A stretch of 64,000 bases of DNA, taken from the IMG/VR virus record IMGVR_UViG_3300044546_000600, positions 1-64,000 of that record; one strand, given 5' to 3'. The notes beneath the pieces were generated by a model. That model worked only from the letters and a program-made list of their open reading frames with translations, did not search any database and was not told where the DNA came from. A program made the translations under genes and the position numbers. This DNA comes from a virus. Taxonomy: Duplodnaviria > Caudoviricetes. The stretch's first letter is position 1; every line of letters starts with the position of its first letter. Shown here piece after piece: positions 3,359-11,080 of the stretch.

Positions 3359-3679
3359 TTTGCTTTCTTGCTTACCTTTGATGTAAGCGGACATTAAGAC
3401 GCAGTAGTTTAAGATGTCCAAGATAGCATCTTCATAGCTTTCGTTTTTAACCAAGAGCTTTCCATCTTGGGCAAACGTGCTAAGACGAGATACCTTGTCA
3501 ATGATACGAACAAGAAAACCTTGTTCAGTAGTGCAGACTCCCATAGCTTCGCACCGCTGAAAGTTGGCAAACGGAACGTCGCCTTTGCTCCCAGCATAGT
3601 CGTTGTTTTTGGCTTGCATGATCTCAAACGCTCGCTTGCAGAGCGTTTGGTGATGCTCAAACAGGTCTTGTCTATTCAT
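3335..3679 (-). CDS. DUF1599 / nucleotide-modification-associated domain 1-like protein
   Basis: KNNDYA...RIIDKVSRL...SYEDAILDILNY pattern. Confidence 0.7.
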   Translation of the reverse strand: MNRQDLFEHHQTLCKRAFEIMQAKNNDYAGSKGDVPFANFQRCEAMGVCTTEQGFLVRIIDKVSRLSTFAQDGKLLVKNESYEDAILDILNYCVLMSAYIKGKQESKSTDSDAS

Positions 3680-3701: not shown

Positions 3702-4013
3702 TTATTCGCCCTTGATAACTTTTGATCTCACCCTAGATAGTAAAGAAGCAACGTCTTTAGAATCCACCACAACAGGAACGTTGCGCTGAATCTTGCCAGA
3801 GTCGTCTTTAAAGGCGTGAACGATTTGATAAGGCTCCTCTGTTCGCGCCGTTTCTGAGGTGAAGCAATGCGCCGCCCATGCTGCGGCATTGTCCAAAGCG
3901 AAATCATAGAAGTTAATGCAGTTGCGAAGCGTACCGTCTCGTTCAAGATTCCAAATCTCAAACCAGTTCTTGTTAGCTGCTACTCCATTAGTTGTGAGTT
4001 GTAGTGTGTCCAT
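3702..4013 (-). CDS. hypothetical protein
   Basis: 103-aa ORF, 1-nt overlap with the upstream gene. Confidence 0.65.
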   Translation of the reverse strand: MDTLQLTTNGVAANKNWFEIWNLERDGTLRNCINFYDFALDNAAAWAAHCFTSETARTEEPYQIVHAFKDDSGKIQRNVPVVVDSKDVASLLSRVRSKVIKGE

Positions 4014-4336
4014 TAGTTTTGTTCGTGAAAAGATTGCTTAACAATATCGTGAGGATATTGCGTTCTATCAATAGATTGAAGCTCATTTGCTCTGATAATC
4101 ATGTAGTGATGAATAAAATGGCGAGTGTCCCAATCTAATACTCGCCCTTCCTCTTGAGGAAGCCCTTGAAGGACTTCATCAAGATTCAGGTTGAAGCTCA
4201 AGCACAAGGCTTGAATCTTACGATAAATGCCGATCTCTTTATACTTTAAGAGAGCAAAGGCAATATCGAGTTCAGTCGTATTCGCATTTTCTAGTTTTTG
4301 AACAAGTGGATTAAGTTTCATATCAGAATGACTCAA
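4013..4336 (-). CDS. hypothetical protein
   Basis: 107-aa ORF directly after rIIB. Confidence 0.65.
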   Translation of the reverse strand: MSHSDMKLNPLVQKLENANTTELDIAFALLKYKEIGIYRKIQALCLSFNLNLDEVLQGLPQEEGRVLDWDTRHFIHHYMIIRANELQSIDRTQYPHDIVKQSFHEQN

Positions 4337-5444
4337 CGATCACCGCGTCATCCGTGCTGACGCGAGAGCCATCGGCACGAAGAGTGTTTTCGTTGGTGTC
4401 GTAGCCCAACTCAAAGATGATGTCAGCAAGCTCATCGTACTCAACATCATATCCATTAATAGCATCGTTCATAATACTAGACAACGATGGATAAATTTCA
4501 TTGTTGATAGCATTTTCGATGTAATTGCCAACTTTAAGTTTGATAGCTTCGTGACGCCAATCAATGTCACGAGAATCGTTGTTATCGTCCACCCGTTCAG
4601 CTCTATCGAGGCCACTATCATCGACGCTATCGCAGCCGCACTCGTCGCAATCATCGCAATCACCTTCGTTATAGATAGGCTCGCTGATCTCTTTGCGCTC
4701 TGGAGTAATGTCAGAGATAACTTTGTACTTGCTCACGCGCAGTTTTTGGAAAGAGCAGTCAGTTGGAACGCTCACAGCATCGGCTGGATTAACCTCCACA
4801 ACGAGCAAACGTCCAGTTGGCCCAGCCCAGTTCTGAGCGTAATCAAAGCTACCAACGTGCAAGCCAAACGAGCAGTGATTGTCTTTGTTGTCGTCAACAG
4901 AGCGACGAGCAACTTCGATAGTAGAGCCAATAGCGTTCAAGATGTGACCTGATTCGTTCACTTTGCCTTGAACAACAACGGTTGAAGTGTTGCCGCTGCT
5001 GGAATAAAAATCATTTTTAACTCCTTTGTAAGCGAGGAAATTTCCTTCTGGCGTGATTGGAAGCGACTTGTAAGACAAGAACGAATAGAGTTCGTTGACT
5101 GAGTTGGCCGAAACGTTAGACATGAGATTGCTAATGAAGTTTAGCAAAGGCTCAGCATCTTTAGCTCCAGCCTTCAACAGCTCAAGCAACTTCGTTACAA
5201 CAACGCCATGTAGCTTTTCAGTGCCATAGAACACTTCGCCATCAGCAACGCGAAGTTTGCCATGAGAGAAGTTGACGATCTTGTGCTCAACGCTCACAAG
5301 ACTAGGAATATCGGCATAGTTCGCGTCGATCAAGGCTTTGCGTAGAGCAAAGAAGTTTGGATTAGACTTCTCGACGGTATAAGGACGACCATTAACGAAA
5401 ACGGTAATGGAATCATCGCGCATAATGTAGGCTGGCTTATTCAT
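4323..5444 (-). CDS. rIIB: RIIB-like protein
   Basis: LYSFL...LPITPEGNFLAYKGV and VDDNKDNHCSFGLHVGSFDYA motifs; directly downstream of rIIA. Confidence 0.85.
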   Translation of the reverse strand: MNKPAYIMRDDSITVFVNGRPYTVEKSNPNFFALRKALIDANYADIPSLVSVEHKIVNFSHGKLRVADGEVFYGTEKLHGVVVTKLLELLKAGAKDAEPLLNFISNLMSNVSANSVNELYSFLSYKSLPITPEGNFLAYKGVKNDFYSSSGNTSTVVVQGKVNESGHILNAIGSTIEVARRSVDDNKDNHCSFGLHVGSFDYAQNWAGPTGRLLVVEVNPADAVSVPTDCSFQKLRVSKYKVISDITPERKEISEPIYNEGDCDDCDECGCDSVDDSGLDRAERVDDNNDSRDIDWRHEAIKLKVGNYIENAINNEIYPSLSSIMNDAINGYDVEYDELADIIFELGYDTNENTLRADGSRVSTDDAVIVESF

Positions 5445-5470
5445 ATAGATAACTTAGTTTAGTTTTGTTG

Positions 5471-7558
5471 TTATTGTTTATCAATCAGGGAAATGTAATC
5501 GACCATGTTTTTGCAGTGCTCTTCGTTATGGTAACCATAGTAGTTTGAGAACATCATTACTATTGGATACTTCTTAACGAGAGCATCATGTTCAGCATCA
5601 ATTTTAGTTTTGTCAATAGTTTCTGAAAAAGATTGGCGGGTCAAGCGAAGCAATTCCATAATACTCTCTTGTTCAAGAGAGAATTGTTTATCAGTTACAG
5701 GTTCAGTTCCGTAGAACATATTCAAAGGATGCTTCTTGTCAAGCCTATCAGCGATACTTTTTACGTAACTTCTAAATTTAGATGCGCGATAATTGTTTTC
5801 GAGATTTTGAGAGATTGCGCTACCGTGCATTTTTAATTGTTTTTTAATGTAATCCTCAACTAGAGTTGCAAGGTTGATTGCTTCGTCGCCCAAATCCGAA
5901 TCATCTTGAACACCATAAACATAAGTTTGGTCAAGGATTTTCAATTCATGCAGCTTGGTAAAGAACTCGAAAGAGTGATCTCTGGTAAATTCTTGACCAG
6001 CAATCTCACAATAAAAGCGGCGATCTTTGTTTTGCAGTTTAACGTAATAAAACTTACCTTCTGGAAGGTTAGCTTGAGTAACAAAAGGCCGATAACCATA
6101 AATGGCTTTGGCAAATACAATGCGAGCCTGAGAAGCCTTCGCCTGATCAGATTTCAATTCTTTGGTAGTAGAAGAAAGGAAAATGCGATTGCAAGTAGTG
6201 TAAGAAGTTAAAAATGCTTTAGCTTCTTCTGGAGGAAGAACAACGACGGAAAAACCTTTTTTGTCTCCAAGAATTGAATTTTTTTGAATCCAGCGAGCTT
6301 TGGCGAAAAGACTCTTTTTTTTGTCCGCGATGAGAATACAATAATTGCTGTTAGAATAAAACAGTGAAGGACTAAGACTTCTCTTGTCGGAAATGCTAAT
6401 AGTTCGGAAATTACCGTTGCGATTAACGCAATAACCATGCGTAATTTCGTAATGGAGGTTTGGCTGAACTTGAATTTTGTCGCCATTAGAGGCGTTAAAG
6501 ATCATTGGTATATCACTAGCAACATTTTGCAAAACGTAATTGTCGCTAATGCTATTCACCTTGGCCATAAACTGCTCTACGTCTGAAATATCATTTAAAG
6601 TCTTTTGAAACACTTCTCTGATTTCATATTCAAGATTTGAGAAGAACGAAACGAGATTCTTTTTAGTGAGTTCGTTGTACTCTAAACTCTCTCTGGAGTG
6701 ATGCAGAGAAAGCGAGCCAACAGGAAAGAAAAACACGAAGAAAGAGGCTGCGCTAGTACCTCTGAGAGATTTGTAGATTGAGAGCGAAGATAGTCTATCA
6801 GACAACATTTCAAGATTAAGTGGGTAAGAAATGCCGCCCATAACAATCACTGGAGAATCTGATCTACGATTATAGACGCTGCCATTATTAAGATGTTTTA
6901 ATACACCCCAAGTGTTGTTCTTTATCACCCAATCAAGAGTTTCCAAAGATTGGATGCCAGAAGAAACAAAAGGCGCGGAGGTGAACTTTAAAACTTTGTG
7001 ACCAGCTTCGATAAACTTAGCAATGTCTTCGTTTTTTACAGCAACAGAAATTTCCACACCATTTGGCTCAGTGGTAGATTCTTCTGCGAGCTTGGTAAAG
7101 CGAGTGTCGCCGCTTTCATCCACATAAACAGAGATAATGATCTTTTCGCCATCTTTGCAGGAAACTACGGTAAATGAGTCGGTATAAGACAAGGGAGAGA
7201 AGCGGCCAATACCGAAACCGCCGATTGCGTTGTTGCTGCCGCGCTTGCTAGAGCGACCATACTTGGTGTAAAGGCCAAACAACTCTTCCTCAGACAAGCC
7301 GCCGCCAAAGTCGCGCACCGAATAGGTAGGAGCGAGATGAGTTGGAAAGCTGATCTTGATTGGAGTGGCAGAATTCGCCGCGCTGTTAGCGTCAACAGCG
7401 TTTGCCCAAGTTTCGCGCACAGTGGCGAGAATGGTGTCGGAATAATTGTTACGAAGAAGAGACGAAATGTAACGCATCTCGCTCGCATCAATGGTAGCGA
7501 TTTCAGATTTGAAATCGTGAGACTCAACAACGTTTTTCTGGATGGATTTAATGATCAT
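5471..7558 (-). CDS. rIIA: RIIA-like protein (GHKL/HSP90-type ATPase N-terminus)
   Basis: VRETWANAVDA, VRDFGGGL, YTKYGRSSK, IGGFGIGRFSPLSY; paired with rIIB. Confidence 0.87.
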   Translation of the reverse strand: MIIKSIQKNVVESHDFKSEIATIDASEMRYISSLLRNNYSDTILATVRETWANAVDANSAANSATPIKISFPTHLAPTYSVRDFGGGLSEEELFGLYTKYGRSSKRGSNNAIGGFGIGRFSPLSYTDSFTVVSCKDGEKIIISVYVDESGDTRFTKLAEESTTEPNGVEISVAVKNEDIAKFIEAGHKVLKFTSAPFVSSGIQSLETLDWVIKNNTWGVLKHLNNGSVYNRRSDSPVIVMGGISYPLNLEMLSDRLSSLSIYKSLRGTSAASFFVFFFPVGSLSLHHSRESLEYNELTKKNLVSFFSNLEYEIREVFQKTLNDISDVEQFMAKVNSISDNYVLQNVASDIPMIFNASNGDKIQVQPNLHYEITHGYCVNRNGNFRTISISDKRSLSPSLFYSNSNYCILIADKKKSLFAKARWIQKNSILGDKKGFSVVVLPPEEAKAFLTSYTTCNRIFLSSTTKELKSDQAKASQARIVFAKAIYGYRPFVTQANLPEGKFYYVKLQNKDRRFYCEIAGQEFTRDHSFEFFTKLHELKILDQTYVYGVQDDSDLGDEAINLATLVEDYIKKQLKMHGSAISQNLENNYRASKFRSYVKSIADRLDKKHPLNMFYGTEPVTDKQFSLEQESIMELLRLTRQSFSETIDKTKIDAEHDALVKKYPIVMMFSNYYGYHNEEHCKNMVDYISLIDKQ

Positions 7559-9174: not shown

Positions 9175-9678
9175 TTACTGGCCAAGGCTGAATTTTTGCA
9201 GTTCACTGATACGCAAGTTCAAACAGTCTGCTGGATAGAGATAAGGCTTGTGAGCAGGAGAAGATTCGTCCAGTTCTCCTTTTTTGCAGTTCAAAGATTG
9301 ATTTAAAAATGATTTTTTATTCATGTAACCAAGAATGTAACCTTTAGAATAGTCTTTGAGAATACTGGTGAATAAATAGTAATCGCACTTCTGTAAGGTA
9401 TTGAACTGATAAACGGTGCAGTTGTAATGGGGCTTTGGCTTAACTGTTCTTTCTTTAGCTTTGATCTCAAAGCGTTTTCCTTTGTTTGACTTCCAATCAG
9501 AGTTGTAGTCTTCGTGAGAAATGATTTCGCCGCCCAGAGCTTCTTGAACCATTAGGTCAGAGATCATGGCGATTTTCCAGCCATCACCATCTCGTATGGA
9601 GTTTTTTAATTTTGGCTTATCTTCCGCTAATTCTAATGCGGTTGCGACGAGCTGTGGATGTAAGTCTATCTCTATCAT
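9175..9678 (-). CDS. putative PD-(D/E)xK restriction-endonuclease-like protein
   Basis: DYNSD...FEIKAK followed by CDYYLF. Confidence 0.5.
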   Translation of the reverse strand: MIEIDLHPQLVATALELAEDKPKLKNSIRDGDGWKIAMISDLMVQEALGGEIISHEDYNSDWKSNKGKRFEIKAKERTVKPKPHYNCTVYQFNTLQKCDYYLFTSILKDYSKGYILGYMNKKSFLNQSLNCKKGELDESSPAHKPYLYPADCLNLRISELQKFSLGQ

Positions 9679-9753
9679 TTATTTGCCCTAAAAGTGTTCG
9701 CGTTTGGTTCTAATGTATATCTTATTTGCGATTTTTTAGTTCGTGTTTGAAAT

Positions 9754-9828
9754 TGGCACGGACGGAGGGAATCGCACCCTCATAAGGCAGTTTTGGAGGC
9801 TGCTGCACTACTAATATACCACGTCCGC
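9754..9828 (-). tRNA. tRNA-Trp(CCA)
   Basis: GCGGACG/CGTCCGT acceptor stem, loop CT-CCA-AA, T arm GAGGG-TGCGATT-CCCTC, encoded CCA. Confidence 0.85.
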
Positions 9829-9849
9829 AAAAATTAAATTTTAAATTGA

Positions 9850-10385
9850 ATCCCCACCATGCACCTAGAAGCATTTCTGCTTTCACGGATGAACCCGACT
9901 TTCAATGCAGGTAGGGAAATTGCACACAGCCATTATTGTCATTGACGTGAATCAAGAGGACTACTGTGTATGTTAAATTATTTGAATAGATGTAGTTTTG
10001 CTTTATATAACTACACTTCAGCGAGTTTCTTATTTACGCATAGGTTCCAACACGTTTAACATTTCCCCATAAACGTGCTGTTATGAACCCAGAGGCTTTT
10101 CGTGACTTCCATGCTTTTCCGCTGACGGTTAGACCCCGTGCTCGTACCGAAGATGGAAACAACCTTCTACATTCCGAGCTGCTATTCAAAATTGGTTCCC
10201 CCTGCCACACAAGTCTTCCAGAACATTTCCAGAAGATGAATGCACTTGTGTGCGCTAATTCTTAAACGATGTAAAGAAACGTGAATCTTTTCAAGAGATC
10301 ACCCAGTTTCGTAGCAACATGGAGCTTACTTTATAAACGCGAATACAGCGGTCTGCATAAACACAGAAGGGAAGATGTGAAAGAA
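9850..10385 (-). ncRNA. candidate large structured non-coding RNA (family unassigned; boundaries approximate)
   Basis: No credible ORF; at least six helices whose G-U pairs work only on the minus strand; GAAA tetraloop; upstream promoter; lies just 5' of tRNA-Trp. Confidence 0.6.
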
Positions 10386-10393
10386 CAAAAGAG

Positions 10394-10421
10394 AACCTAC
10401 TTATTTTACATTAGATGTCAA
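10394..10421 (-). promoter_or_regulatory. sigma70-like promoter with embedded ATGTAAAATA motif
   Basis: TTGACA-16 nt-TAGGTT; the spacer contains the candidate late motif. Confidence 0.5.
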
Positions 10422-10440
10422 GTGTTTCTAATGACTTTTT

Positions 10441-10860
10441 TTAGAATTGTTCTCGCCGCCATTCATCGTATTTGATTTTAGCGGCATCAATAGCTGGGCA
10501 AATACCTTTTGCGCCGTTACTAAACTCAACCCACCGGTAGCAACCACGATTCTCAGTTTCCACACTCATGCCGATTTTAAATGGCATATTGAAACGTGTT
10601 TCATCGGTGTCATCAGGATGATTTTCAACAGTATAATAAGACACGGTATTTATGCTCGTGCCTCCAGCTTGAAGAAATCTTTCAAGCCATTCAAGACGCT
10701 CTTCGGCTTTCTCGGCGCGGACTTGCCACGCGGAGGCGGACTCGGCAACCATTCGTGCGCCGCGAATATACTCGGCCTCGCGTGCGTCACGTTGCTTCAT
10801 TAACTCGGCTACTTTCTCTTCCGCTGTAATGAGGTTTTTACTATAGTTTGATGCGTACAT
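10441..10860 (-). CDS. hypothetical protein with N-terminal coiled coil
   Basis: ORF track 10441..10899; first ATG at 10860. Confidence 0.6.
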   Translation of the reverse strand: MYASNYSKNLITAEEKVAELMKQRDAREAEYIRGARMVAESASAWQVRAEKAEERLEWLERFLQAGGTSINTVSYYTVENHPDDTDETRFNMPFKIGMSVETENRGCYRWVEFSNGAKGICPAIDAAKIKYDEWRREQF

Positions 10861-10864
10861 AAAT

Positions 10865-11080
10865 TTAAATAATATAAGGTCCACAATTCGCAAAATCATT
10901 AGGAGACATAACTTTTGGGTTAACTATATCTATAGCACCAAGAGAAAATACCCTATCATACGATTCGTTATGTATTTTCTTGCTATGTTCACGCACATAA
11001 TCCCCCATCTCCATATGATTCATTTCTGATTTAACAGCTACGGCTTTAAAACAATCTCCTTTGATAATGTATTGAAACAT
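10865..11080 (-). CDS. hypothetical protein
   Basis: 71-aa ORF tiling. Confidence 0.55.
   Translation of the reverse strand: MFQYIIKGDCFKAVAVKSEMNHMEMGDYVREHSKKIHNESYDRVFSLGAIDIVNPKVMSPNDFANCGPYII

Follow-up and report, generated by a model that had tools for sequence, protein, structure and literature searches.

The locus and its setting

The window analysed here, a stretch of 64,000 nucleotides of DNA, derives from an uncultured lake phage of the T4-like kind, and the DNA runs in which it is found are lake-water metagenomes. The genes rIIA and rIIB lie at 4323-7558, and the nearest cultured relatives, Methylophilales phage Melnitz and Pelagibacter phage HTVC008M, share about 40% amino-acid identity. 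Between an open reading frame (ORF) at 10441-10899 and a gene for tRNA-Trp (CCA) at 9754-9828 is a gap, and the genes that surround it are encoded on the minus strand. The 762 nt from 9679 to 10440 are the longest stretch of the window that lacks an ORF of at least 80 amino acids on either strand, which bears out the description of the gap, in an initial annotation of this DNA, as its largest ORF-poor interval. ORFs of 58-64 amino acids occur in the gap on both strands. The 58-amino-acid ORF at 10034-10210, which crosses the junction of the units termed B and C1 below, is broken in contigs that are 98% identical; substitutions in the gap show no periodicity of three, and indels are mostly of 1-2 nt.

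The gap was compared by BLAST and alignment across 73 IMG/VR loci, which were retrieved by means of the proteins that flank the gap. Four structured units, termed cassettes B, C1, C2 and D, were delimited; in the window they follow the order B-C1-C2-D-tRNA-Trp and are separated by short U-rich spacers. The tRNA-Trp gene (minus strand; identified by ARAGORN, and by the Rfam tRNA model at 47.9 bits) begins 22 nt after D and is the last gene of the unit.

A predicted promoter and a boxA-like element

A sigma-70-like promoter is predicted at the upstream end of the gap on the minus strand, with a -35 hexamer, TTGACA, at 10416-10421 and a -10 hexamer, TAGGTT, at 10394-10399, separated by a spacer of 16 nt. 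The -35 hexamer is invariant in all relatives that have this arrangement, and the -10 reads TAGGTT, TAGATT or CAGGTT. A promoter pointing into the region had been proposed at the outset, and it is indeed present in the best-conserved gap block of the relatives that share the arrangement. An alternative promoter, TAGAAA-16-TAAAAT at 10430-10403, overlaps it.

The 5′ end of the predicted transcript carries a boxA-like sequence, GTTCTTTCACA (10376-10386, minus strand), with one mismatch to the boxA consensus GYTCTTTAANA (PMC5725501). Four relatives (L004, L023, L024 and L100) have a perfect boxA, GTTCTTTAACA, at the homologous place, and conservation within the gap is highest in the block comprising promoter and boxA-like element. 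With TAGGTT as the -10, the element would occupy +1 to +11, unusually near the start; with the TAGAAA-16-TAAAAT promoter it would lie at about +20. In rRNA operons, boxA and the Nus factors shield untranslated transcripts from Rho, so a similar role is plausible here, and the boxA-like element of the window probably recruits Nus factors.

At the other end of the locus, between the tRNA and the next gene (9679-9753, minus strand), the repeat CAAACAYGAA is followed 13-17 nt later by CAAATAAGAT. This motif is found in two copies in the window and in three in some relatives, one copy enclosing a GC hairpin; to judge from their sequence, the CAAACAYGAA repeats look like tandem phage-specific promoters.

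Four stem-closed cassettes

Cassette B (179 nt; 10193-10371, minus strand; alignment A4) is a cloverleaf-shaped four-way junction. Its closing stem is acceptor-like, with 7-8 bp, and is followed by an invariant single-stranded N-CCA 3′ end; the other arms comprise a small hairpin, a variable central domain and a long bulged hairpin. In a short form of the L025 type the central domain is cut to a 7-bp hairpin and the four arms are kept. The T-loop and D-loop sequences of tRNA are absent from B, and neither ARAGORN nor the Rfam tRNA and tmRNA models match it. As predicted from its sequence, B has the shape and the N-CCA end of a tRNA mimic.

Cassette C1 (208 nt; 9982-10189, minus strand; alignment A3) folds into a five-way junction closed by UUGAAUAG/CUAUUCAA. 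Cassette C2 (9919-9975, minus strand), delimited by conservation, is a 57-nt hairpin unit closed by ACACAG/CUGUGU, with its core at 9923-9970; it is well conserved and cleanly missing from two relatives (L092 and L115), shows little covariation, and is the weakest of the four units. Cassette D (68 nt; 9851-9918, minus strand) is a three-way junction defined by covariance model R1, which scores it at 87.8 bits as the sole copy in the window. Some 24 positions of its core, in the junction strands and P2, are invariant, and the core as a whole (UGAANGU, CGG[GYYC..RU]CCG, UG, P3, CUAG) is near-invariant, with P1 and P3 variable and covarying; the covarying P1, of 13 bp, closes the junction. The invariant core looks, from its pattern of conservation, like the binding site of one specific partner.

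Compensatory changes support these structures. They are found in 16 of the 47 pairs of B (99% of cells paired) and in 10 of the 55 pairs of C1 (98.5%), counts that partly reflect shared ancestry because the homologues of both cassettes are close (75-100% identical). For D the corresponding counts are 18 of 21 pairs in alignment A2 and 17 of 21 in A5, in alignments that were fitted to model R1 and of which A2 contains a few chance hits. For B, C1 and D alike, none of 500 shuffles reached the score, and slid controls for the cassette alignments gave 30-50% paired cells (35-50% for D). Folding energy was modestly better than that of shuffled sequence for the whole stretch (z = -2.3 on the minus strand and -1.7 on the plus strand), with z of -2.25 for B, -3.18 for C1, -0.95 for C2 and -2.81 for D.

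Each of the five minus-strand helices proposed in the initial annotation lies within a helix supported by covariation. The helix at 10206-10252 is the long hairpin of B (columns 132-178), with compensatory changes in 8 of 17 pairs; three more fall in C1, at 10140-10179 (the P2 domain), 10048-10080 (the distal hairpin of the P5 domain) and 9991-10015 (P6); and the pairing of 9852-9863 with 9906-9916, enclosing an AAGCA-GAAA-TGCTT hairpin, corresponds to P1 and P3 of D. The orientation that had been read from G-U pairs is likewise upheld, by invariant G-U pairs (for example C1 columns 72-169 and B columns 153-165) and by covariation that fits one strand. Energy alone cannot fix the strand, because D folded on the plus strand gives z = -2.9. 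Taken with the ORF scan, covariation and folding energy support the earlier view of the region as non-coding, structured and read from the minus strand.

Several further readings of D were considered and rejected. P2 is not a tRNA T-loop, since its loop varies from 6 to 8 nt and U54/A58 are not retained; the junction strands fit no permutation of the hammerhead in our own comparison; a pseudoknot of the P2 loop (UUCA) with J1/2 (UGAA) is contradicted by variants that keep only 2-3 complementary bases; and a simple terminator does not fit the copy in the window, where no U-run directly follows P1. The string GAAAGUC-GGG presumably resembles conserved region I of RNase P, a reading that was dropped.

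Cassettes B, C1 and C2 in the tRNA arrays of related phages

The gap is a mosaic in the relatives, in which blocks come and go independently. The promoter block is kept in all of them, the next block is present in some and shortened in others, the middle block is common to the window and one contig and is replaced by unrelated sequence in the remaining relatives, and the 3′ block (cassette D) adjoins the tRNA. Relatives of the L019 type have another unit in place of C1. One relative (L010/L027, 3369-3770) lacks B to C2 and keeps D; in it D is preceded, at a distance of about 20 nt, by a 133-amino-acid ORF whose end is similar to the C-terminal part of the upstream gene. The more distant relatives by flanking genes (34-50% amino-acid identity) have no gap at the site, and the DNA examined from them holds no match to D.

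Core patterns of B and C1 were found in 22 and 27 viral stretches, respectively. The true matches lie in more than 20 uncultured lake-phage contigs, within arrays of 20-40 tRNAs: B in about 15 distinct contigs, after tRNA-Trp or tRNA-Glu, and C1 in about 25 IMG/VR contigs, mostly right before tRNA-Asp or tRNA-Glu. B and C1 nearly always follow tRNA-Trp, Glu or Arg and directly precede tRNA-Asp (or Glu), despite a differing order of tRNAs. The association with phage tRNA genes suggested by the initial annotation therefore holds, in that the cassettes are found within the tRNA arrays of related phages. In one array of 26 tRNAs (L110), window positions 10369-9917 match at 88% identity between tRNA-Trp and tRNA-Asp, and D stands at the array head, 2.3 kb from B-C1-C2; the order D ... 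tRNA-Trp-B-C1-C2-tRNA-Asp is shared by about 12 other arrays. The tRNA-Trp of the window is 95% identical to the array tRNA-Trp that precedes B. The units are also found separately or in other company: B is alone in L095, C1 occurs without B in L145-L153, and an extra unit lies between B and C1 in L028 (about 3410-3540) and in L092, the two being different units with U-rich spacers. Three more stem-closed non-tRNA units follow tRNA-Trp in L110 (7886-8137), one of them with a T-arm-like GGTATCGAGTCCAGCC.

The tRNA that follows D varies among close relatives: it is Trp (CCA) in the window and Gly (UCC) in most relatives (for example L019, 3820-3894). Three relatives that are 98% identical (L001, L003 and L101) keep B-C1-C2-D and have no tRNA, owing to a clean deletion of 90 nt between AATTT spacers. 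Since near-identical phages with a different tRNA or none keep the cassettes, these are not mere tRNA leaders, and the same comparison argues that they are selected for a function of their own. The ends of the units point to the position that they hold in an array. About 98% of 217 distinct tRNAs of the related arrays encode CCA, and W-U-U-U follows directly, its last three positions being U in 82-94%. The cassettes have trailers of this tRNA type (AUUU after the CCA of B, after C2 and after D, and AUAAUUU after C1) and hence occupy tRNA slots.

Other RNA genes are found in these arrays. Rfam models identify tmRNA genes in L131 (8583-8953) and L149 (6617-6994), at 105.6 bits, and a Pistol ribozyme in L149 (7823-7889), at 54.5 bits. 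The presence of tmRNA and Pistol suggests that the arrays are general RNA-gene islands, of which B, C1 and D are unnamed members.

Distribution and contexts of cassette D

The core pattern of D was found in 38 metagenome stretches and a looser pattern in 58 viral stretches, from which model R1 confirms 40+ and 21 further copies, with a GC content of 0.36-0.70; chance matches to the patterns (L077, L102, L107, L128, L129, L147 and L154) were left out. Among 185,579 prokaryote genomes there were two matches to the core pattern, in a Nocardia coding region and a MAG contig, both poor by the model, so D is essentially viral or metagenomic.

The contexts of D are diverse. In arrays with up to 26 or more tRNAs it comes first, with a spacing of 9-12 nt to the leading tRNA (Thr). 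In three GC-rich contigs (L103, L109 and L114) an extended -10 promoter precedes D by about 90 nt and a holin/spanin-like operon follows it; a PHROG scan of the genes that adjoin D in other phages gave one weak match, spanin-like. In another lineage it ends 7 nt before a start codon, in L161 it precedes an ORF of 871 amino acids with a GRGVGKT motif, and in L083 and L159 there are boxA-like sequences just upstream of it. Three copies lie within 1.2 kb in L106 (3851-3922, 4008-4078 and 4943-5015), two of them with a variant P2 loop (GCCCAUGU or GCUCAUGU). The copy at 4008-4078 has a predicted promoter, TTGACT-17-TATATT, at the 5′ end, and its P1 is followed by a U-run, which suggests that it is a free-standing small RNA gene. 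A copy before tRNA-Thr in L189 (3062-3177) has an insertion of about 50 nt in P3, so this helix tolerates large insertions. Some tRNA-like elements that follow D were missed by ARAGORN: a 65-nt element in L083 (10111-10175) that scores 39 bits with the Rfam tRNA model, and an element in L170 and L178, bounded by GCGGGGG and CTCCCCCG, in which one hairpin resembles a T-arm.

Contigs from RNA libraries

RNA-library contigs of four metatranscriptome studies, on lake and river water, span 9843-9980, 9997-10357 and 10345-10495. As assembled contigs give no information on strand, ends or abundance, and may stem from DNA carry-over, they are weak evidence for expression. The flanking genes (9200-9826 and 10511-10900) had no cover in the same libraries, which does not count as selective expression. 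The contigs bridge the junction of B and C1, where at least some molecules, or contaminating DNA, are accordingly contiguous. Contigs of two studies end at 9997, one of them with adapter sequence, which at most hints faintly at an RNA end.

A probable transcription unit of separate cassettes

Selection acts on the structure of the cassettes, which move as units and outlast the loss of tRNAs. We consider it probable that the locus is a single non-coding transcription unit made up of separate cassettes, in effect a collapsed tRNA array. Minus-strand transcription would start at about 10387 from the sigma-70-like promoter, and the boxA-like signal at the start of the transcript may recruit host Nus factors and so protect the untranslated RNA from Rho. 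The transcript would carry B, C1, C2 and D, each folding independently, and tRNA-Trp, with short WUUU trailers between them. In E. coli, RNase E separates polycistronic pre-tRNAs within A/U-rich trailers, and RNase P needs an acceptor-like stem. By analogy, the most likely course would be cleavage of the phage transcript by RNase E within its U-rich trailers and by RNase P at the closing, acceptor-like stem of cassette B, in parallel with T4 RNAC and RNAD; C1, C2 and D have no CCA end, so maturation of the RNase P type is plausible only for B. On this analogy the chances are about even that the host processes the precursor into discrete small RNAs. What the cassettes do is more tentative: our best guess, put forward as a possibility, is that they work in trans on the translation or tRNA machinery of the host, or serve as decoys for defences directed at tRNAs.

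An alternative, which we judge unlikely, is that D and boxA form a cis-acting element at the head of an operon, either a put-like antiterminator or another control of downstream transcription or processing. The position of D in several lineages is in keeping with such a role: it heads tRNA arrays with the first tRNA 9-12 nt away, is found between an extended -10 promoter, some 90 nt upstream, and the holin/spanin-like operon in L103, L109 and L114, and precedes the 871-amino-acid GRGVGKT ORF of L161. BoxA-like sequences are found upstream in the window, L083 and L159, and the size of D (about 68 nt) is close to that of put RNA (about 70 nt), which is also promoter-proximal (PMC9378689). The fold of D, a three-way junction with P1, differs however from the two stem-loops, V shape and triplex of put. 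Furthermore, the D of the window lies about 470 nt downstream of the start and after three cassettes, D is kept in L001, L003 and L101 without a tRNA behind it, and one copy of D in L106 reads as a unit from promoter to terminator and seems to be opposed by a converging gene.

The initial annotation had proposed a large non-coding RNA of about 550 nt, of a class such as GOLLD or ROOL or of a new one. Its core, that structured RNAs without an explanation are present in phage tRNA islands, stands; the single RNA and membership in GOLLD or ROOL do not. If the region were one multi-domain RNA of this kind, the cassettes would be its domains and the U-rich stretches its linkers, which we regard as very unlikely. 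B followed by C1 co-occurs in most arrays, contigs from RNA libraries cross the B/C1 junction, and both GOLLD and ROOL are found near tRNA islands, with tRNAs sometimes held in a GOLLD linker (PMC12286853). Nevertheless, every domain has a terminal helix that closes it, and none of the covarying helices links one cassette to another; the four units occur separately, in other orders and beside other neighbours, with B, C1 and D each found alone and D kilobases from B and C1 in arrays; and the supposed linkers equal tRNA trailers, the WUUU type following each unit. Neither the GOLLD nor the ROOL model matches 9600-10600 at E <= 10 with permissive filters.

That D is a new self-cleaving ribozyme or ligand-binding aptamer is highly improbable in our assessment. 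Its conservation pattern is typical of such RNAs, with about 24 invariant core positions and with P1 and P3 free to vary and covarying; it occurs in many intergenic contexts of unrelated phages, and a Pistol ribozyme is present in the related array L149. Against this, no ribozyme or riboswitch of Rfam 15 matches D, the hammerhead is a misfit and no expression platform is evident. Finally, it is scarcely credible that the units are decayed tRNA genes, neutral array remnants or a region of small proteins, as the cloverleaf topology and CCA end of B, the likeness of the locus to a shrunken array and the ORFs of 58-64 amino acids might suggest, given that compensatory changes keep 98-99% of cells paired across lineages, that B and C1 are 85-95% conserved across arrays of differing tRNA order, that the ORFs are broken by indels of 1-2 nt and show no codon periodicity, and that tRNA models find no match.

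Significance

The locus adds three well-supported RNA families (B, C1 and D) that are absent from Rfam, with clear boundaries and secondary structure. A bolder reading, which we consider unlikely, is that D represents a new and widespread class of phage small RNA, with a core that is catalytic or made for specific binding, and that B and C1 are two further new classes. The core of D would then be a self-cleaving ribozyme, an aptamer for a metabolite or signal, or an RNA for reprogramming RNA polymerase or a defence protein of the host. If classes of this kind were kept after the loss of tRNAs, 'tRNA arrays' would be RNA-gene islands with functionally important non-tRNA cargo. What tRNA arrays do for large phages is still a matter of debate, and the other RNAs that such arrays contain have hardly been explored; to our knowledge, T4 RNAC and RNAD had no known role for decades. 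Near-identical phages with tRNA-Trp, tRNA-Gly or no tRNA, in which the cassettes are constant, constitute a natural experiment. D is short and has a strongly conserved core across unrelated lineages and contexts, and so is usable for cleavage assays, ligand screens, pull-downs and structure determination. The present analysis contributes the distribution and contexts of D, the statistic on shared WUUU trailers and the retention of cassettes after tRNA loss.

Comparison with known RNA families and systems

A search of Rfam 15, on the window at gathering score and on both strands of 9600-10600 at E <= 10 with permissive filters, identified only tRNA; matches at E of 1 or more (snoZ182, DGCR5 and a Tymo tRNA-like element) are noise. 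The families named for this check in the initial annotation thus gave no match. GOLLD (RF01998) is absent from 9600-10600 at E <= 10 and from the window at gathering score, ROOL (RF03087) from the window and gap and from the 150 best-scoring matches to 131 kb of related arrays, and tmRNA, RNase P RNA, group I intron and 6S RNA from the gap at E <= 10. The tmRNA model detects true tmRNAs in the related arrays, so the search is able to find them in such sequence. The ribozyme and riboswitch models of Rfam 15 have no match to D, and blastn in a distant mode gave no match of 9680-10460 to 50,697 phage records, T4 included.

The boxA-like element invites comparison with the leaders of bacterial rRNA operons, in which a boxA of the GYTCTTTAANA type directly follows the promoter of a long, untranslated and structured transcript; relatives match this consensus exactly and the window with one mismatch. 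Unlike those leaders, no boxB, boxC or RNase III stalk was identified here, and a role of Nus factors in a phage tRNA-type operon is putative. The put RNA of phage HK022 is promoter-proximal, of about 70 nt, with two stem-loops in a V shape and a triplex, and acts in cis on RNA polymerase (PMC9378689). Like putL and putR, D has about 70 nt, folds by itself and is often near the start of long operons, but D is a three-way junction with P1 and is also found free-standing and far from promoters.

GOLLD, first found in lake metagenomes, and ROOL occur near tRNA islands, GOLLD with a variable 5′ part, a conserved 3′ part and sometimes tRNAs in its linker (PMC12286853). Like the cassettes, they are structured phage RNAs that are often in or beside tRNA islands, an analogy of habitat only: the cassettes are of 57-208 nt, separable and with closing stems of their own, and no long-range helices or pseudoknots that join them were found. 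Cassette B recalls tRNA mimics, such as the YrlA-type bacterial Y RNAs and the tRNA-like domain of tmRNA, in that it has a four-way junction, an acceptor-like stem and an N-CCA end and lies in a tRNA slot, and differs from them in its lack of T- and D-loop sequence and from tRNA in its much longer arms.

The closest precedent is provided by RNAC and RNAD of T4 (species 1 and 2), small non-tRNA RNAs among the T4 tRNA genes that are co-transcribed with them and whose role is unknown (PMC3014915). B, C1 and D are likewise non-tRNA RNA genes among phage tRNA genes on the same strand: in more than 20 contigs B and C1 have tRNA-Trp (or Glu/Arg) on one side and tRNA-Asp (or Glu) on the other, and D stands ahead of the first tRNA. 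In contrast to the T4 pair, with which they show no sequence similarity by blastn, the units described here number four, of which two are larger (179 and 208 nt), and they shuffle between positions and persist after the tRNAs have been lost.
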